DNA from: an uncultured delta proteobacterium
Lineage (GTDB): Bacteria > Desulfobacterota > Desulfobaccia > Desulfobaccales > 0-14-0-80-60-11
Direction: 5' to 3'
Length of the DNA: 64,000 bases
Assembly: GCA_963812015.1 (NCBI GenBank)
Contig: CAWETI010000002.1
Span: forward strand, 992,001 to 1,056,000
The first letter of the stretch is position 1. Each line of letters starts with the position of its first letter. A program made the position numbers and the translations under genes. Shown here in pieces: positions 1 to 47,200 of this stretch. Under the pieces are notes generated by a model, which did no database searches, had not been told where the DNA came from, and worked only from the letters and a program-made list of their open reading frames with translations.

Positions 1-3000
1 TGCCATTGACAAGCTGGACCGCGCTCCCTGTGTGACCACCTGTCCGGCTAATATTACCGTCCAGGGTTATGTCCAGCTCATCAAGATGGGGAAATACCCA
101 GAGGCGGTGAAGCTCATCATGGAGGACCTGCCCTTGCCCGGAGTTTTGGGTCGGGTCTGCCCTCATCCTTGTGAATCCGCCTGCCGTCGTCAGGAGGTGG
201 ACGAACCCATCGCCATTTGCAACCTGAAACGCTTCGCCGCGGATCAGGTTGATCTGGCCACCTTGTCTATCCCGGAAGTGCCCCAAAAAGATGACAAGGT
301 GGCGATCATCGGTTCCGGTCCGGCCGGCCTGTCCTGCGCCTATCAACTGGCCCGCCGGGGCTATCAGGTGACGGTGTTTGAGGCCTTGCCGGTCACCGGC
401 GGCATGATCCGGGTAGGCATTCCGGATTATCGCCTTCCCAAAAAAGTTCTGGATGACGAAGTCAACTACATTACCCGCTGGGGCGTGGAAATCAAGACCA
501 ACACCGCCTTGGGACGGGACTTTTCCCTGGATGATCTGTTTGCCCAAGGATATAAGGCGGTGTTTTTGGGGCTGGGCTGCCACGTGGGCAGCGCCATGGG
601 CATCCCGGGAGAAGACGCCGCCGGAGTGGTCCAGGGGGTCGATCTTTTGCGGAATCTGAATCTTGGCAAAAATCCCCCCATCGGCAAGAAAATGGTGGTC
701 ATCGGCGGTGGCAACGTGGCCTTTGATGTGGCCCGGTCCGCAAAACGTTTGGGTTCCGAGGTGAGCATCCTCTACCGCCGCACCCGGGCCGAGATGCCCG
801 CCAACGCCGAAGAAATCGAAGAAGCTGAATGCGAACATCTCCCCATTGAGTATCTGGTGGCCCCCAAGGAGGTGGTGGTCGCCAAGGGTAAAACGGTGGG
901 CCTGAAATGTACCCGCATGGAGCTGGGTGAACCGGATGCATCCGGCCGCCGGCGGCCCATCGAGGTGCCGGGCTCGGAATTCGTGGTGGACTGCGACATG
1001 ATCGTCCCGGCCATCGGCCAAAAGGCTAATCTGAAGGGCCTGGAACGTACGGGTATCGCCACGACCAAATGGGGCACCCTCGAGGTCAACGAAATCACCT
1101 ATGAAACTTCCCGGCAGGGGGTTTTTGCCGCCGGGGATGTGCACACCGGGCCTTGGATTGCCATTGGCGCCGTGGCCGGCGGTAAAGAGGCGGCGGAATC
1201 CATTGACCGTTATCTGCAAGGGCAGGATTTGGCGGCTGGCCGGGGCTTGAGCGAAGAAACCAAGGCCATGCAGAACTGGGCGGATATCCCTCTCAATGAA
1301 GAGAAGAAGCCACGCCAGGTTATGCCCCAATTACCGCATGAGGTGTGTTGCACCTGCTTTGATGAGGTCAAGAAAGGATATTCCGAGGATCAGGCGAGGG
1401 CTGAGGCCGAGCGGTGCCTTAATTGCGGCATCTGTTCCGAATGTATGCAGTGCGTGGCGGCCTGCCCGGCCCAAGCAGTGACCCACGACCAGGAGCCCAT
1501 CACCCACAACCTCGAAGTGGGCTCGGTGATTCTGGCTACCGGGGCGCAGACGTTTGATCCCACCCAGATGCAGGGGGTTTACCTCTACGGCAAACATCCC
1601 AATGTGATTACCTCCCTGGAATTCGAGCGCATATTGAGCGCCTCCGGCCCCTTTCTGGGCCATATGGTGCGGCCCTCGGACAAAAGAGAGCCCCAGAAAA
1701 TCGCCTGGCTCCAGTGCGTGGGGTCCCGGAATACCAACCAGTGCAAGAACGGCTACTGTTCCGCGGTATGCTGTATGTATGCCATCAAAGAAGCCGTGGT
1801 GGCCAAGGAGCATAGCAAGGAGCCCTTGGAAACCACCATCTTCTATATGGACATGCGAACTTATGGGAAAGACTTTGAAAAATACTATAACCGGGCTGAA
1901 AAAGAGTACGGCGTGCACTTCGTCCGTTGCCGGGTGCACACCATCGATCCGGCTGAAAACGATGGGCTCAGAATCAAATATGTCAATGAGAGTGGGGAGC
2001 CCCAGTCGGAATACTTTGACCTGGTGGTCTTGTCCGTCGGACTGGAAGTTGATCCGGGTACCATAAATCTGGCCAAAAAATTGGGCCTGGACCTCGACAA
2101 ATATAACTTTGCCGTGACGGATGTGTTTGCGCCGGTGACCACTTCCCGGCCCGGGGTTTATACCTGCGGTCTGTTAAAAGAACCCAAAGATATTCCTTCG
2201 GCAGTAACCGAGGCCAGCGCCGCCGCCTGCGCCGCCAGCGTCGACCTGGCTGAGGCCAGGGGCACCCGGGTGCAGGTGCGGGAACTGCCGCCGGAACTGG
2301 ATGTCTCCGGACAACCTTCCCGTATCGGGGTCTTTGTGTGCAACTGCGGCATCAACATCTCCTCGGTGGTGGATGTCAAAGACGTTTCCCGTTATGCCGC
2401 GACCTTGCCCAATGTGGTCTTTACCGGAGAGAACCTCTTTACCTGCTCCCAGGATACCCAGGAGAAGATCCGTAAGGTCATCGAGGAAGAAAAACTCAAC
2501 CGGGTCGTGGTGGCGGCCTGCACCCCCCGCACCCATGAGCCCCTCTTCCAGGCTACCATCCGAAACAGCGGGCTCAACAAATATCTCTTTGAAATGGCCA
2601 ATATACGTGACCAGGACTCCTGGGTCCACCAACAAGAGCCCGTGGCGGCCACGGAAAAAGCTAAAGATCTGGTCCGCATGGCGGTGGGCCGGGCTAACCT
2701 GCTGAGGCCGCTCATTGAGCGTCCCCTGGAGATCAACCCCCGGGGTTTGATAATCGGCGGGGGCGTGGCGGGCCTGAATGCCGCCTTAAACCTGGCTAAC
2801 CAGGGTTTCGAAGCCATTATCGTGGAAAAAAACCCGGAACTGGGGGGACTGGCGCGCCGCGTGCAACATACCATCGAAGGCGTCGATGTGCAGGCCTACC
2901 TGGATAGCCTCATCAGACAGGTGAAGAGCCACGAAAAGATCCAGGTGTTGACCGAGGCTTTGGTGGTGGGATTCAAAGGCTTCAAAGGCAACTTCACCAC

Positions 3001-3988
3001 GGAAGTCCTGGTGGGGCCGGGCATGTACGGACGCAAAATCGAACACGGCGTGACCATCGTCGCCACCGGAGCCCGTGAATATCGGCCCAAGGAATATCTT
3101 TACGGCGATCATAAAAAGGTCATGACCCAACTGGAACTCGGTCAGGTCATGGAAGAACGGTCCAGGGATGTGGCGAAATGGAACCGGGTGGCCATGATCC
3201 AGTGTGTGGGGTCGCGCAATGAGGAAAATCCCAACTGTAGTCGAATCTGCTGCCAAAGTGCCGTAAAACATGCCCTGGGACTCAAAGAACTCAATCCGGA
3301 TATGGATATCATCATCCTCTATCGAGATATGCGGACGTATGGCCTGCTCGAGGATTATTATACCGCGGCCCGGAATGCCGGCATAATCTTCGCTCGTTTT
3401 GATCCGGAAAAAGCTCCTGAGTTAAAGGCCGATGGCGATGCACTCAGCGTTACCTTTATTGATCACGTCCTCCAGAAACCGGTCCGCATGGATCTGGATG
3501 CGTTCATTCTCAGTGCGGCAACCCTGGCGGAGGATACCGAAGAATTGGCCTCCTTCCTTAAAGTGCCGCGTAATGCCGACGGCTTTTTCATCGAGGCTCA
3601 TGCCAAGCTCAGGCCGGTGGATTTTGCTTCAGAGGGGATTTACCTCTGCGGTACGGCCCACAGCCCGAAGCTCATCGGCGAAAGCATCGCTCAGGCCCTG
3701 GCCGCGACGTCCCGGGCCGCGGCTTTCTTGTCAGCGACCAACCAAACCATTGGCGGCGTCGTGGCCCAGGTAATAAGGCCGGAACGATGCGCTGCCTGCC
3801 TGGTTTGCGTCAGGAGATGCCCGTATGGAGTGCCACAGATCAACCGGGAGGATGTCTCTGAAATCAACGAGGCCCTCTGCCAGGGATGCGGTATTTGTGC
3901 CTCGGAATGCCCGGTCAAGGCGATTCAGCTGGCCCATTATGACGATGACCAGATCATGGTCAAATTGGATGCCTTGATGGAGGCCTAA
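1..3988 (+). CDS. HdrL-type heterodisulfide reductase A-like flavoprotein (GltD-like NAD(P)H-binding module fused to HdrA modules); 5'-truncated by window edge
   Basis: Frame open from base 2 (AIDKLDRAPCVTTCPA); GltD motifs GRVCPHPCE, IIGSGPAG, VIGGGNVAFD, YRRT; two HdrA motifs QCVGSR..YCSAVCC and QCVGSR..CSRICC; VFVCNCG, ACTPRTHEPLF, EMANIRDQDSWVH; terminal 2x[4Fe-4S] ferredoxin. Confidence 0.9.
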   Translation, partial: AIDKLDRAPCVTTCPANITVQGYVQLIKMGKYPEAVKLIMEDLPLPGVLGRVCPHPCESACRRQEVDEPIAICNLKRFAADQVDLATLSIPEVPQKDDKVAIIGSGPAGLSCAYQLARRGYQVTVFEALPVTGGMIRVGIPDYRLPKKVLDDEVNYITRWGVEIKTNTALGRDFSLDDLFAQGYKAVFLGLGCHVGSAMGIPGEDAAGVVQGVDLLRNLNLGKNPPIGKKMVVIGGGNVAFDVARSAKRLGSEVSILYRRTRAEMPANAEEIEEAECEHLPIEYLVAPKEVVVAKGKTVGLKCTRMELGEPDASGRRRPIEVPGSEFVVDCDMIVPAIGQKANLKGLERTGIATTKWGTLEVNEITYETSRQGVFAAGDVHTGPWIAIGAVAGGKEAAESIDRYLQGQDLAAGRGLSEETKAMQNWADIPLNEEKKPRQVMPQLPHEVCCTCFDEVKKGYSEDQARAEAERCLNCGICSECMQCVAACPAQAVTHDQEPITHNLEVGSVILATGAQTFDPTQMQGVYLYGKHPNVITSLEFERILSASGPFLGHMVRPSDKREPQKIAWLQCVGSRNTNQCKNGYCSAVCCMYAIKEAVVAKEHSKEPLETTIFYMDMRTYGKDFEKYYNRAEKEYGVHFVRCRVHTIDPAENDGLRIKYVNESGEPQSEYFDLVVLSVGLEVDPGTINLAKKLGLDLDKYNFAVTDVFAPVTTSRPGVYTCGLLKEPKDIPSAVTEASAAACAASVDLAEARGTRVQVRELPPELDVSGQPSRIGVFVCNCGINISSVVDVKDVSRYAATLPNVVFTGENLFTCSQDTQEKIRKVIEEEKLNRVVVAACTPRTHEPLFQATIRNSGLNKYLFEMANIRDQDSWVHQQEPVAATEKAKDLVRMAVGRANLLRPLIERPLEINPRGLIIGGGVAGLNAALNLANQGFEAIIVEKNPELGGLARRVQHTIEGVDVQAYLDSLIRQVKSHEKIQVLTEALVVGFKGFKGNFTTEVLVGPGMYGRKIEHGVTIVATGAREYRPKEYLYGDHKKVMTQLELGQVMEERSRDVAKWNRVAMIQCVGSRNEENPNCSRICCQSAVKHALGLKELNPDMDIIILYRDMRTYGLLEDYYTAARNAGIIFARFDPEKAPELKADGDALSVTFIDHVLQKPVRMDLDAFILSAATLAEDTEELASFLKVPRNADGFFIEAHAKLRPVDFASEGIYLCGTAHSPKLIGESIAQALAATSRAAAFLSATNQTIGGVVAQVIRPERCAACLVCVRRCPYGVPQINREDVSEINEALCQGCGICASECPVKAIQLAHYDDDQIMVKLDALMEA

Positions 3989-42394: not shown

Positions 42395-42847
42395 ATGACC
42401 GATAGTGAGATCAGGATTGTTCATGCCATACCGGGGCGGGTCAGGCTCAAGGTCGCTAGGCTGAGGGAGAACCCACCCCTGGCTCGGGTCATTCAAGAGC
42501 GCCTGGGGGCCGTCCGGGGTATCCAGGGGGTGGAAGCCACTCCCCTGACCGGCAGCGTGCTGGTGCTTTTTGACCCTCAGGCCATCACGTCCCCGGAGTC
42601 CCTGGCGACCCTGTCCGAGACGCTCACCGGCCTTTTTCCGGGACCGGATCTGACCCAATTGGCGGATTTTCTGAGCCGGTCCATGGCGGTGGAAGAGGCC
42701 GGGCTCACCTGGTCCGAATTTGTGGTGGACTTTTTGGTGGACCTCAACGCCCGACTGGGGAGTGCCCTGGGAGGGTTGGCGGATTTCCGGCTGCTGGTCC
42801 CCCTGGCATTGGTGGTTTTTGGACTGCCGAGATTGCTGAACAAGTAA
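42395..42847 (+). CDS. HMA2 domain protein (possibly C-terminally truncated)
   Basis: IVHAIPGRVRLK, TGSVLVLFD, DFRLLVPLAL. Confidence 0.8.
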   Translation: MTDSEIRIVHAIPGRVRLKVARLRENPPLARVIQERLGAVRGIQGVEATPLTGSVLVLFDPQAITSPESLATLSETLTGLFPGPDLTQLADFLSRSMAVEEAGLTWSEFVVDFLVDLNARLGSALGGLADFRLLVPLALVVFGLPRLLNK

Positions 42848-42980: not shown

Positions 42981-43787
42981 TTACCCCGCGCTTCCCAAGA
43001 CGTGTTCGTTAAGGTACCAGGTGAAGGCCGCCGCGTCCCGGGCGCTTTTGAGGTAAAGGTCCAGGTGGGCCTCGTCCTGGGGGTAGAAGCCCGGATAGCC
43101 GGTGGGGGCGGCGCCGCCGGGGCAGTGGACCAGAGCGGTGAGCCAGATGGCGGGGATGAGGCGCCATTCCGGCTGGTCTTGCAGGGGGCCGGCCACCCGT
43201 TCTTCCACCGTGGCGATGACCTGACGGGAGGCGGTGACGGCCAGGTGCCAGTCAGAGACCCGGGGAATGAGGATATTGCCCCGGGAGTCGCCCCGGCCGG
43301 CGTGTACCAGGGTGACGTCGGGAATCAGGGCCTGGACCGCCACCAGGTCTTGGCCGGAAAAGGGATCAGGTATGACCCGGAAGCGGGGATTGACCGACAG
43401 ATACGCAGAGCCCAACATGCCCCGGACCGGCAGAAACGGCGCCCCCATGCCCCCCGCCTGGAGGGCGCGCAGCAGCGCCCCTCAGGGGTACTCCAGACAG
43501 TGCAGGCGGCCCGCCTGGACCGCGGCCCGAAAGTGGGGGGCCATGCCGTATTCCTCCAGCCCCACCTGGGCGAAGTGGAGGCGGTCGGCCACCCCGGCGC
43601 CCACGGCCAGGTCGACGTTGAGGCCCCCGGTGGGCACGGTGATCAACCCCAGGTTCCGGCGACCCTGGCGGATGAGTTCCCGGATCAAGGCCATGGGGGC
43701 GGCGCGGCTGTGGCCCCCCAGGGCCACCAGGTCCCCGTCCTTTACCAGCGCCGCCGCGGCGGCCAGGTCAGTCCAGACAGGTGGCAT
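42981..43787 (-). CDS. CoA-transferase alpha-subunit-like protein with in-frame UGA (candidate selenoprotein)
   Basis: ORFs 43482-43787 and 42981-43448 share a frame and join as HCLEYP-TGA(43482-43484)-GALLRALQAGGMGAPFLPVRG; motifs VKDGD..LGG, PMALIRELIRQ, PDVTLVHA..D..GN. Confidence 0.8.
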
Positions 43788-44373
43788 CGCGGTCTCCCGC
43801 TATGGGGTGGGCCCCCAGGTAGGCCAGCAGGTTAAGGAGAATGCGGGCGGTGGCCCCCCAGACCACCTCCTGGCCGTTGTGCCAGTAGCAGACCCGGGTG
43901 GTGCGGCCCTGGAAGGTGTAGGGGCCGGAGCGCCAGCGTTCCGGGGGAAAAAACTCCGCCACCGGCCAGGTCAGCAGGCGCTTGACTTCCCGGGGACTGG
44001 GCCGAAAGTCGTAGGGGTGGGGGATGAGTCCCACAAAGGGAGTGATGTGGTAGCCGGTGATGGTGGCCACCGGGGGGAGCGTTCCCAGCACCTCCACCGC
44101 CTCGGGCGCCAGGCCGATCTCCTCAAAGGTTTCCCTCAGGGCCGTGCCCAGGAGGTGGGGGTCCTCCGGGTCCCGGACCCCGCCCGGAAAGGCGATCTGC
44201 CCCCGGTGATCCTTCACCAAAAGGGTGCGCTGGGTGAACAGCACCTGGACCTCCCCCGCCTTGAGGAACAGGGGCACCAGCACTCCGGCGGCAACCAGGT
44301 CCGACTCCGGCCCCGGCGGGGCCGGCTCCTGGGGCAAATGGTCCTTGAGATGGGCCAGGATTGAGGTGACCAT
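43768..44373 (-). CDS. Nudix CoA pyrophosphatase (NudL/PCD1 family)
   Basis: LFTQR...HRGQIAFPGG, TALRETFEEIGL, VWGATA; overlaps the CoA-transferase start. Confidence 0.9.
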   Translation of the reverse strand: MVTSILAHLKDHLPQEPAPPGPESDLVAAGVLVPLFLKAGEVQVLFTQRTLLVKDHRGQIAFPGGVRDPEDPHLLGTALRETFEEIGLAPEAVEVLGTLPPVATITGYHITPFVGLIPHPYDFRPSPREVKRLLTWPVAEFFPPERWRSGPYTFQGRTTRVCYWHNGQEVVWGATARILLNLLAYLGAHPIAGDRDATCLD

Positions 44374-44621
44374 AATTCTTTTTACCACGGCCCCGGGGTC
44401 CTGGCAACCGCCAGGCCGAAGCCGGTGGTCGCCGGACCGGCTTAGTGATGAGGACCCGCCGGGGAAACCCGCAGCCCCCGCCGATCCCGCCAGGCCGGCC
44501 GGAAGCTGCCGGGGGTGCAATTGACAAGGCGCAGAATGAAGCTTATGTTGATGTAGGGTTCAGCTCATGGGCTCTGCAGCCCATCAACATGCAGGAATCA
44601 GCTGACAGGGAGATCGCCACC

Positions 44622-45146
44622 ATGAAAGTGCAGGAATATATGCTCAAGGCGTTGAAAGACGCCGTGCAAATGGAGGTCGAAGGCCGCCAGTTTTATCTGG
44701 AAGCGGCCAAGAAAGTGAAGAGTGCCGGGGTCCGGGATATCATGGCGTACCTGGCGGAGTCGGAAAAATACCACATCGAAAAATTCAACGAGGTCTACCG
44801 GAGCCTGGAAAAGGACCCGTCCTGGACCGAAACCATAGCGGCCTTTAAGCCCCCCCAGCACGAGCCTTATGTCTGCGTCATGGCCATGACCAAAGATGAA
44901 CAGGGCGCCGGCGGCCAGGATGACCTTCAGGCCCTCAAGACCGGCATCAAGATGGAGGAGTGCTCCATCGACTACTACACCAAACTGGCCAAGGAAGCCA
45001 CCAACCCCCTGGCCCGGCGCTTCTTCATGAGCGTGGCCCATGAAGAAAGGGGCCACTACCTGACCCTGATGGATATGCACAACTACCTGACCATGCCGGA
45101 GGACTGGTTCTACGTCACCCAGATGAGCAATGTGGATGGGGGCTGA
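44622..45146 (+). CDS. Ferritin-like/rubrerythrin family protein
   Basis: E..G..FY, E..H and E..SIDYY, EERGH di-iron motifs. Confidence 0.88.
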   Translation: MKVQEYMLKALKDAVQMEVEGRQFYLEAAKKVKSAGVRDIMAYLAESEKYHIEKFNEVYRSLEKDPSWTETIAAFKPPQHEPYVCVMAMTKDEQGAGGQDDLQALKTGIKMEECSIDYYTKLAKEATNPLARRFFMSVAHEERGHYLTLMDMHNYLTMPEDWFYVTQMSNVDGG

Positions 45147-45208: not shown

Positions 45209-45964
45209 GTGGAGTTGATCGTGGTAGGTTCCGGCACCGGGGTGCCCTCCCTGCGCCGGGGCTCGCCGTCCCTGGCGGTCAAGGCCGCCGGCCGACTCCT
45301 GGTCCTGGACCTGGGGTCCGGAACCCTGCGGGCCCTGTTACGTCTCGGCCTCAATTTTTCGGCCATCGACGTTCTGGCCCTGACCCACCTGCACCCCGAC
45401 CACGTGGGGGATCTCATCCCCTTTTTGTTCGCCACCCGCTACTCCCTGGGCTACACCCGCCGGGAGCCTTTCCGGCTCCTGGCCGCCCGGGGGTTTGCCC
45501 GGTTTCACGCCCGACTCCAGGAGGCCTTTAATGGCTGGGTGGAGCCGCCCCCCGGCCTCATGGACCTTAAGGAACTCGCCCCGGACGGCCCGGATGAAGT
45601 GCGGGACGCGGGCCTGGTAATCCGGAGCGCCCCCACCAATCACACCGAAGGGAGCCTGGCCTTTCGGGTGGAGGCTGAAGGCCGGTCCGTGGTCTATTCC
45701 GGGGATACGGCTGAGAGCGACTCCCTGGTGGACCTGGCCCGGGGAGCGGATATTTTGGTGCTGGAGGCCGCCAACCCCTTCAAGGTCCCGGGACACCTCA
45801 CTCCCCGGGAAGCCGGGGGCTTGGCGGCCCGGGCCGGGGTGGCCCGCCTGCTCCTGACCCACTTTTATCCGCCCTGCGATGCAGTGGACGTGGTGGCCCT
45901 GGCGGCCCAGGAGTTTTCCGGAGAGGTCCTCCGGGCCGAAGACGGCCTGAGCCTCACCGTGTGA
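45209..45964 (+). CDS. MBL-fold hydrolase, RNase Z-like
   Basis: GSGTG, THLHPDH, YSGDT, LTHFYP. Confidence 0.88.
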   Translation: MELIVVGSGTGVPSLRRGSPSLAVKAAGRLLVLDLGSGTLRALLRLGLNFSAIDVLALTHLHPDHVGDLIPFLFATRYSLGYTRREPFRLLAARGFARFHARLQEAFNGWVEPPPGLMDLKELAPDGPDEVRDAGLVIRSAPTNHTEGSLAFRVEAEGRSVVYSGDTAESDSLVDLARGADILVLEAANPFKVPGHLTPREAGGLAARAGVARLLLTHFYPPCDAVDVVALAAQEFSGEVLRAEDGLSLTV

Positions 45965-46296: not shown

Positions 46297-46405
46297 AAAC
46301 ATCGGGGCGCCGGCCCGGGTCAAGGGGCCGGAGGTTCCCCGGGTTTGCCGATTTTAGCGGGTGAGGCAAGCCTTACCCCCAATTCAGCTTCGCGAGGACT
46401 TATCT

Positions 46406-47200
46406 ATGTCGATCATCACGATTTCCCGGGGTTCCTACAGCCGGGGCAAAGAAGTAGCCGAAAAGGTGGCCGCGGTGTTGGGCTACGAATGTATCTCCCG
46501 GGAGATTCTCCTGGAGGCCTCGGAACAATTCAATATCCCGGAGATCAAGCTGGTGCGGGCGATTCACGATGCACCCTCCATCCTGGAGCGTTTCACCTAC
46601 GGCAAGGAAAGGTACGTGGCGTATCTCAAGGCGGCCTTAATGAAACATATCCAGAAAGATAACGTGGTCTATCACGGTCTGGCCGGCCATTTCTTCCTCC
46701 AGGAGATCCCCCATGTCTTCAAGGTGCGGATTGTCGCCGACCTGGAGGACCGGATCGCCGAGGAGATGAAACGGGAAAACATCTCCGCCGCCGAGGCCCG
46801 GCATATCTTGAAAAAAGACGATGACGAGCGCCGCCGCTGGAGTATTCAGGTCTTTGGGGTAGATACCTGGGACCCCATGCTCTATGACATGGTGCTCCAC
46901 ATCAAGTCTTTCAAGGTGGATGATGCGGTGGCGTTGATCCTGCAAGCCGTCAAACTTCCCTGCTTCCGCGCCACCCCGGCATCCCAGAAAATTCTCGATG
47001 ACCAGGCCCTGGCGGCCCGGGTCCAGGCGGCCCTGGTGGAAGAGTTTCCCACCGCCAAGGTGAGCGCCCAAGAGGGGGAACTCTTCGTGAATATCAAGAG
47101 CAACCTGACCGAAGAACAAGAAGTGATCGCCCGGGTGCGGCGCATCGCCAGCAACGTCGCCGGGATCGAGGTCAAGATGCAGTACTTCATCCACCCCTGA
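46406..47200 (+). CDS. Cytidylate kinase-like family protein with BON-like C-terminus
   Basis: IITISRGSYSRGKEVAEKVA, YHGLAGHF, YDMVL. Confidence 0.85.
   Translation: MSIITISRGSYSRGKEVAEKVAAVLGYECISREILLEASEQFNIPEIKLVRAIHDAPSILERFTYGKERYVAYLKAALMKHIQKDNVVYHGLAGHFFLQEIPHVFKVRIVADLEDRIAEEMKRENISAAEARHILKKDDDERRRWSIQVFGVDTWDPMLYDMVLHIKSFKVDDAVALILQAVKLPCFRATPASQKILDDQALAARVQAALVEEFPTAKVSAQEGELFVNIKSNLTEEQEVIARVRRIASNVAGIEVKMQYFIHP

Follow-up and report, generated by a model that had tools for sequence, protein, structure and literature searches.

A candidate selenoprotein alpha subunit with the CoA-transferase fold in Desulfobaccales

Three described groups of enzymes are closest to the gene reported here: the classical family I CoA-transferases, the hydrolase IpdAB and the decarboxylase AibAB. 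At two positions, one in each subunit, the classical enzymes combine an alpha-subunit Gln with a beta-subunit Glu, IpdAB combines an alpha Glu with a beta Gly, and AibAB an alpha Gly with a beta Cys. The beta Glu of the transferases is the first catalytic solution in this fold, and the alpha Glu of the IpdAB hydrolase the second. In the CtfAB enzyme of T. melanesiensis, the bound acetate has one oxygen 2.5 Å from the side chain of CtfA Q98 and the other 3.0 Å from the catalytic CtfB Glu46 (PMC12400318). In IpdAB, Gly57 takes the place of GctB Glu54, and the enzyme showed no CoA-transferase activity (PMC5380842). In AibAB, AibB Cys56 stands in for the conserved catalytic Glu of glutaconate CoA-transferases (PMC7756340). 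Here, we describe a GctA-like alpha-subunit gene located in a stretch of 64,000 nucleotides (the window) of an uncultured delta proteobacterium of the order Desulfobaccales. Its codon 102 is an in-frame TGA, which we predict to be read as selenocysteine (Sec), and this codon aligns with active-site residues of the enzymes above.

The original prediction held that two open reading frames (ORFs) of the window are a single frame broken only by the TGA at 43482-43484, giving a protein of 268 amino acids (aa). The ORF list and a translation in which TGA is read as U agree on this. The ORFs 43482..43787(-) (101 aa) and 42981..43448(-) (155 aa) share one frame, and reading TGA as U turns 42981-43787(-) into 268 residues with only one TGA, in the motif EYP-U-GALLRALQAGGMGAPFLPVRG. 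The residues around codon 102 are L-H-C-L-E-Y-P-U-G-A-L-L-R-A-L-Q-A-G-G-M-G-A-P-F-L-P-V-R-G. The position 42981-43787 had been given correctly; the strand, which had been left unstated, is minus. Residues 8-198 match Pfam CoA_trans (PF01144, E = 1.1e-21), which bears out the proposed alpha-like CoA-transferase subunit, except that it is not a lone alpha, since a beta gene is present elsewhere in the genome. The NCBIfam alpha models scored far under their cut-offs (3-oxoacid CoA-transferase, 37 versus 128.5 bits; acetate CoA-transferase, 22 versus 315), and no selenoprotein-specific model matched in the NCBIfam scan of the alpha protein. When about 5.8 billion proteins were searched, all of the best 120 matches listed were pieces of 153-172 residues, most of them of 155, and the jgi-named ones among them are labelled 'glutaconate CoA-transferase subunit A'. 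Since all 120 are short pieces, many public assemblies evidently have the alpha gene cut at a similar point.

The TGA is conserved well beyond the window. Among 401 sampled genomes of the phylum, 192 have an alpha homologue at E <= 1e-10, and at least 23, falling under 11 family codes, carry '1 TGA' among the 150 matches listed. The same column holds TGA in 22 of 30 aligned phylum loci, Cys in two (L029 and L041), Glu in four, His in one and Asn in one. Within the order (61 sampled genomes), every one of the 22 alpha matches that exceed 70% identity has the TGA. When one genome per species was scanned, 24 loci were obtained from metagenome-assembled genomes (MAGs) labelled Desulfobaccales, Desulfobacca or 'delta proteobacterium', and 23 of these loci cover the alpha gene. 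A MAG labelled Desulfobacca acetoxidans (L096) also carries the gene. Codon 102 is TGA, inside an invariant EYPUGALL, in 22 of these 23 independent loci, so that the TGA is not private to one assembly; when the Desulfobaccales sequences are aligned around codon 102, it is present in 23 out of 23. Across the same 23 sequences, codons 103-113 contain 10 variable nucleotide sites and only one codon in which the amino acid changes. This almost exclusively synonymous variation indicates that the frame is under protein-level selection right after the TGA. The TGA was also looked for in reads. Both halves of the alpha gene are covered by contigs from four unrelated sequencing runs, namely three wetland RNA libraries (three studies) and one peat DNA run, and one RNA-library contig crosses the TGA with more than 60 nt on either side, although contigs from RNA libraries are no proof of transcription and tell nothing about translation. 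Among the variants listed from these runs, none falls at 43482-43484, and synonymous variants are listed nearby.

Two loci of these samples have an irregular alpha gene. The remaining one of the 23 MAG loci, L088, is out of frame by naive translation, and at G423:C5:25155-25948 the alpha match is broken into two abutting pieces. These apparent frame disruptions could be assembly errors or decaying copies.

A subfamily with Cys exactly at the position of the UGA had been put forward in the original prediction, and such a subfamily exists. In the best 150 representatives of 50%-identity clusters, the column is occupied by Glu (57), Cys (34), Gly (13), Asn (9), Ala (6), His (5) or Ser (4), and 11 of the representatives are fragments. 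The Cys-type representatives are full length, and one of them, P0200, reads LDATCPAIHAGLQASQKGLP, near the string given there. Where a Cys-type representative has a source name, it is 'CoA transferase subunit A' or 'glutaconate CoA-transferase subunit A', and these named proteins come from Paenibacillus, Christensenellales and Chloroflexota. The FastTree phylogeny, built from 141 rows, contains a clade with support 99 whose 37 rows are purely Cys (19) and Sec (18) forms, and a second Cys/Sec clade of 10 rows (support 98). Gly-type (AibA-like) and Glu-type rows sit outside the Sec/Cys clade. The distribution of the Sec label requires at least five changes on the tree, three of which are forced by well-supported branches. 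Both types can occur side by side: the 4.5-kb contig L062 (G158:C132:1-4564) carries two tail-to-tail alpha-beta pairs, with a Cys-type alpha at 593-1435 (+) and a TGA-type alpha at 2941-3732 (-), which belong to different tree clades.

The hairpin that had been described downstream of the UGA, including its lower stem, is present (Table 1) and resembles a selenocysteine insertion sequence (SECIS). When the RNA downstream of the UGA is folded alone, a 7-bp stem GCCCUCC/GGGGGGC forms, whose loop AGGC begins 22 nt after the UGA. The 63 nt following the TGA align gap-free in the 22 TGA-type genes, and RNAalifold predicts for them a 6-bp helix (columns 21-26 with 30-35). The loop that it encloses, 23 nt past the UGA, is an invariant GGC. 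Compensatory changes occur at three to four pairs, three of them in the RNAalifold helix. In a 7-pair version, 90.3% of the cells in the 22 genes are paired, versus 76.8% in shuffles (0 of 500 shuffles reach 90.3%), and sliding the partner strand lowers pairing to 25-53%. The helix is also specific to TGA genes: all six pairs are formed in 18 of the 22 and five of six in the other four, as against one to five of six (mean 2.75) in eight homologues without TGA. The core of the hairpin, codons 109-113 (43452-43466; CTC CAG GCG GGG GGC), is nucleotide-identical in the 23 Desulfobaccales sequences; third positions are fixed in these codons, and codons 103-108 show synonymous variation.

The machinery for making and inserting Sec is encoded by the same genome (3.96 Mb, 6 contigs), with selA (608 bits), selB (368), the tRNA-Sec (74.7) and selD (373) all scoring above curated cut-offs. 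The selD gene (G000:C2:1058596-1059513) lies about 2.6 kb past the right end of the window and itself contains one in-frame TGA, which means that the organism makes a Sec-containing selenophosphate synthetase near the alpha gene. On the strength of these comparisons, it is very likely that the alpha gene encodes a real selenoprotein in which UGA codon 102 is decoded as Sec. We infer the insertion of Sec from comparative evidence; it would be helped by the hairpin, which begins about 15 nt downstream of the UGA inside the coding sequence.

To which residue of known structures does Sec102 correspond? A profile of 22 family members (A1) was searched against the PDB, and by this measure AibA (5MZW, E = 8.7e-57), GctA (1POI, 4e-56) and IpdA (6CO6, 3e-50) are about equally close to alpha. 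The best PDB match in a single-sequence search is AibA (E = 1.5e-33). In the profile alignment, the Sec column falls on Gly106 in AibA, Gln in GctA, Glu in IpdA entry 6CO6 and Ala in entry 6COJ. As the IpdA Glu is Ala in this variant entry, its depositors mutated exactly that residue, which we take to be the catalytic Glu105. A comparison of A1 by hhalign with a canonical alpha of a related genome (L101; probability 98.8) placed Sec/Cys102 on the Gln of M-P-Q-G-T. In pig SCOT, the motif has its aligned counterpart in E-L-T-P-Q-G-T-L, whose last residue is number 102, and the Gln is accordingly Gln99. We infer, from the numbering only, that CtfA Q98 occupies the same column. On grounds of homology, the alignment to SCOT Gln99, the GctA Gln and the IpdA Glu would thus place Sec102 in the middle of the active site.

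The genome of the window has exactly two PF01144 matches: the alpha gene and one beta gene at C2:495566-496294, about 540 kb away. The beta protein has 243 residues (PF01144, E = 5.6e-13), and its best PDB match in a single-sequence search is AibB (about 1e-20). Its Val53 aligns with AibB Cys56, a column that differs among the AibB variant entries. We aligned 23 betas. The 20 that are paired with TGA-type alphas, including that of the window genome, are hydrophobic at this column (mostly I, V or L), and a deletion of about 15 residues that directly follows the column is common to them. The Sec/Cys clade therefore combines Sec or Cys in alpha with a hydrophobic residue in beta, for the most part Val, Ile or Leu. 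With Val at the column of the catalytic Glu, the classical ping-pong mechanism via a glutamyl anhydride and thioester cannot run. The proposal that Sec implies a chemistry unlike the beta-Glu mechanism is strengthened by this Val in the partner subunit, as well as by the alignment of Sec with the classical active-site Gln and with that Glu of IpdA for which 6COJ has Ala.

A PF01144 beta gene of about 248 codons adjoins alpha in 18 of 21 loci, the exceptions being the window and its two relatives G397 and G373. In the 61 genomes of the order, both genes are present in 19, neither in 38, alpha only in three and beta only in one, and the four discordant genomes are fragmented MAGs of 190-460 contigs. 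The two genes are never adjacent in this sample and lie 80-540 kb apart where they are on one contig. In at least three genera (g1, g5 and g259), whether a genome has alpha co-varies with whether it has beta; we give this co-occurrence without a statistic, because related genomes are not independent samples. It supports a continuing partnership between the two subunits, and we consider it likely that alpha works with, and presumably binds, the unlinked beta.

Both genes are patchily distributed. Among the eight sampled genomes of genus g1 other than that of the window (G000), alpha is present in five and beta in four, with neither in G009, G051 and G424; neither gene was found in 14 genomes of family f2. 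Such patchiness within genera is suggestive of an accessory function that has been lost or transferred repeatedly. A gene for an MBL-fold hydrolase (L076:385-1314, in G000:C2) lies just upstream of the unlinked beta. Such a gene precedes beta in G000 and G397, and was not found in the G373 locus.

Taken together, the explanation that we hold to be the best, and rather more probable than not as a whole, is that the gene encodes the selenoprotein alpha subunit of a heterodimer that uses a catalytic Sec for a non-classical reaction. The enzyme is probably not a classical CoA-transferase but one similar to AibAB or IpdAB with a catalytic Sec, and we lean with some confidence to the view that Sec102 is the catalytic residue of such a non-classical enzyme, as its predicted position suggests. 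The usual site of the alpha-beta enzyme would accept an acyl-CoA, or else a pantetheine thioester related to it, and the selenolate (a thiolate in the Cys forms) would be the catalytic group there. This group would attack the thioester, or a carbonyl nearby, giving an acyl-selenoester or a hemiselenoketal, and the enzyme would then be a thioester hydrolase, a transacylase, or a thiolase-like or IpdAB-like C-C hydrolase, and not a CoA-transferase. More tentatively, Sec may be a nucleophile with a selenoester intermediate. A nucleophile is favoured because exchange between Sec and Cys is typical of nucleophilic or redox cysteines, because Sec replaces a group that touches the carbonyl or carboxylate of the substrate, and because no further conserved acid or nucleophile can be made out. 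Substrate and pathway are presumptive.

The features of the locus are collected in Table 1. Upstream of alpha lies a gene for a NUDIX CoA pyrophosphatase; as the family match does not begin before ORF residue 71, the true start of this gene is uncertain. Each of the 23 related loci that were examined has a NUDIX homologue upstream of alpha. In 22, L088 among them, it runs 17 nt into the alpha gene, and in L097 the two do not overlap. In the loci examined from the other, non-Desulfobaccales clades, this pairing was not seen. Because the reading frames overlap, alpha and the CoA pyrophosphatase probably share an operon in Desulfobaccales, and the overlap suggests joint expression and a role in the turnover or salvage of CoA esters. 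At the alpha-beta loci examined outside Desulfobaccales, the neighbourhoods follow no pathway logic; the neighbours there include a CMD-family protein, poly(A) polymerase, an MFS transporter, ferredoxin, PGI, FBPase and an epimerase.

Table 1. Coordinates of the alpha gene, its predicted recoding elements and neighbouring genes in the window
Feature	Position	Strand	Evidence or remark
Alpha-subunit gene (GctA-like)	42981..43787	minus	268 codons plus stop; ATG 43785-43787, stop 42981-42983; PF01144 match
In-frame TGA, codon 102, predicted to be read as Sec	43482..43484	minus	conserved column, aligned to active-site residues
SECIS-like stem-loop in coding sequence	43438..43479	minus	folds and comparative pairing
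Apical hairpin	43449-43466	minus	loop AGGC 22 nt past UGA
Lower stem	43474-43479 with 43438-43443	minus	GGCGCU/GGCGCC
NUDIX CoA pyrophosphatase gene, upstream	43768..44520	minus	NF007980 135.2 bits; Pfam NUDIX; 3' end overlaps alpha start by 20 nt
HMA_2 (heavy-metal-associated 2) protein	42395-42847	plus	convergent with alpha gene
Rubrerythrin-like protein	44445-45146	plus	syntenic in two closest relatives
MBL-fold hydrolase	45209-45964	plus	syntenic in two closest relatives
Cytidylate-kinase-like protein	46361-47200	plus	syntenic in two closest relatives

A bolder proposal, which we regard as speculative and on balance doubtful, is that the Sec/Cys clade may represent a third catalytic solution in this fold, in which an alpha selenolate or thiolate performs covalent catalysis with CoA thioesters via an acyl-selenoester. 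In Desulfobaccales, where alpha is split from beta and overlaps the CoA pyrophosphatase gene, it might then serve an undescribed selenium-dependent clearing or salvage of CoA esters.

Several points weigh against a selenoprotein alpha with a catalytic Sec and a role in CoA-ester chemistry. To our knowledge, nearly all Sec enzymes act in redox reactions, and one that did nothing but transfer acyl groups would be out of the ordinary. The placement of Sec102 at the active site comes from sequence alignment to solved structures, and AibA, which has Gly at this column, still works, so the position is not catalytic in every relative. Folding of the single sequence together with upstream bases gave an unrelated minimum free energy structure (z = +1.15 versus shuffles); the single-sequence fold energy proves nothing, because this G+C-rich sequence folds no better than its shuffles. 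Moreover, the stem overlaps conserved codons (L-Q-A-G), so that part of the conservation of the hairpin is due to coding. The NF007980 score, on which the naming of the NUDIX gene draws, is barely over the cut-off (135.2 versus 134). Finally, with uninformative neighbourhoods outside Desulfobaccales, no substrate can be named.

We weighed four other explanations against this one. The first, which we consider unlikely, is that the enzyme is an AibAB-like acyl-CoA decarboxylase acting on a glutaconyl-type ester, in which alpha Sec/Cys102 protonates the enolate and so takes over the role proposed for AibB Cys56, a residue at the adjacent position of the active site. AibA and AibB are indeed the best single-sequence PDB matches of the two subunits (E = 1.5e-33 for alpha, about 1e-20 for beta), and the thiol seems to have 'moved', from a combination of alpha Gly106 and beta Cys56 in AibAB to one of alpha Sec/Cys102 and beta Val/Ile. 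Calculations favour AibB Cys56 as a general acid (PMC7756340). Variants of AibB Cys56 stay active, however, so that this role is dispensable there. Furthermore, a selenol is mostly deprotonated at neutral pH, which, as a matter of general chemistry, makes it a poor general acid. The Sec/Cys clade also stands apart from the Gly-type AibA-like rows on the tree, GctA and IpdA are about as near as AibA by profile, and no aib-type neighbours (HMG-CoA synthase, reductase) were seen at the loci examined.

The second alternative is a role in redox or thiol handling, in which the selenolate would react with the sulfur of CoA in disulfides, persulfides or other adducts to form Se-S bonds, and the CoA pyrophosphatase would dispose of damaged CoA. 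Nearly all families in the selenoprotein table of a 2026 review are redox proteins (PMC13188914), the overlapping CoA pyrophosphatase gene is kept in 22 of the 23 loci, and Sec sits where the chemistry of CoA thioesters happens. Against this, the protein lacks both a redox cofactor domain and a conserved Cys that could act as partner. Cys97 is not invariant, and the link with the NUDIX gene is confined to Desulfobaccales. We judge this role to be quite improbable. The Cys of a 'PTxC' motif was considered as the partner in an obligatory Sec-Cys pair and rejected, since Tyr or Phe stands there in the window and in all 22 close relatives. This Cys is present in 16 of 19 Sec forms and 13 of 34 Cys-type representatives, and also in GctA and AibA. 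A fixed Sec-Cys redox pair in the clade of the window is therefore unlikely, to judge from these alignments.

A third alternative takes the TGA as a true stop, the gene being split or dead, with a 101-residue fragment and perhaps a 155-residue piece restarted at Met114. Public gene calls give the 155-residue piece as a protein of its own, and codon 114 is ATG in 22 of 23 close relatives (AAG in the other). Yet the TGA is kept at its column in lineages that are only 34-50% identical, and many of these distant TGA-type alpha genes have no Met at codon 114 (e.g. GASGLPF, GVHNLPF). The almost purely synonymous change in codons 103-113, the full-length Cys forms, the restriction of the hairpin to TGA genes and the presence of the Sec machinery all argue in the same direction, and leave the true stop as a very slim prospect. 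Least probable of all is a classical CoA-transferase in which Sec has replaced Gln and only adjusts the binding of the substrate. In its favour, the protein retains the fold and the majority of the CoA-binding motifs, and the column is that of the substrate-binding Gln of the classical enzymes, but no examined beta paired with a Sec- or Cys-type alpha has the catalytic Glu, and the genome contains no other beta homologue.

We also compared the gene with published lists of selenoproteins. Table 1 of a 2026 review of the prokaryotic selenoproteome contains 119 families and subfamilies, including some known from GenBank annotation only, and most of them are thioredoxin-like redox proteins; the table has no CoA-transferase or PF01144 entry (PMC13188914). 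Term searches gave nothing relevant in the text of deep-Sep (PMC12013277) or the main text of BSepDB (PMC13326102), the supplementary family tables of both being outside our scope. The same holds for a 2016 ISME J survey, a 2007 paper on Olavius symbionts, a 2022 review and Haft's 2022 preprint. A wider search of the openly accessible literature, with subscription papers outside its scope, yielded, to judge by titles and the opening lines of abstracts, no report that combines selenocysteine with CoA-transferase, glutaconate, COG1788 or AtoD. Nor did any paper turn up that cites IpdAB together with AibA. We therefore rate the gene as a selenoprotein family missing from the published lists that can be checked and, with respect to catalysis, as a novel variant of a fold that is already known. 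If true, Sec at the catalytic position of a CoA-thioester enzyme would bring Sec chemistry into acyl-CoA metabolism. The finding also flags a large uncharacterised subfamily of Cys-type proteins in Bacillota, Chloroflexota and other phyla, annotated merely as 'CoA transferase subunit A', whose members are probably not CoA-transferases. In addition, because gene callers split alpha into fragments of 101 and 155 residues, counts of the Desulfobacterota selenoproteome miss it.

Comparison with the known systems shows how far the likeness goes. AibA/AibB, the 3-methylglutaconyl-CoA decarboxylase of Myxococcus xanthus (PDB 5MZW-5N03), is the best single-sequence PDB match for both subunits, and it shares the two-subunit GctAB fold, a beta without the catalytic Glu, and a CoA-ester substrate that is processed without CoA transfer (PMC7756340). 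It differs in having Gly106 in AibA, where Sec is found here, and Cys56 in AibB, where the beta has Val. A segment of about 15 residues of AibB is missing in the betas studied here, with Glu72 falling in the deleted region; no aib neighbours were seen, an aib operon context is absent, and the proteins are in separate tree clades.

IpdAB, the hydrolase that cleaves a ring of COCHEA-CoA in the steroid pathway (6CO6, 6CO9, 6COJ, 6CON), is likewise a heterodimer with the GctAB fold. Its alpha Glu, presumably Glu105, is replaced by Sec or Cys here, and Glu-type proteins belong to other clades. No steroid-catabolic neighbours were seen at the alpha locus, where the neighbours are NUDIX, HMA_2, rubrerythrin and MBL-fold genes, and the host is an anaerobic Desulfobaccales bacterium. 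As in the present case, the IpdAB beta is without the catalytic Glu, and IpdAB proved inactive as a CoA-transferase (PMC5380842).

The classical family I CoA-transferases (GctAB 1POI, SCOT and AtoDA/CtfAB) belong to the same Pfam family, and the CoA_trans fold is found in both subunits here. Instead of their alpha Gln in P-Q-G (SCOT Gln99, CtfA Q98) and beta Glu, the present pair has an alpha codon predicted to be read as Sec and a beta Val. With the published prokaryotic selenoprotein families, finally, the gene shares Sec/Cys homologues, a SECIS-like hairpin that closely follows the UGA and a host with abundant Sec machinery.

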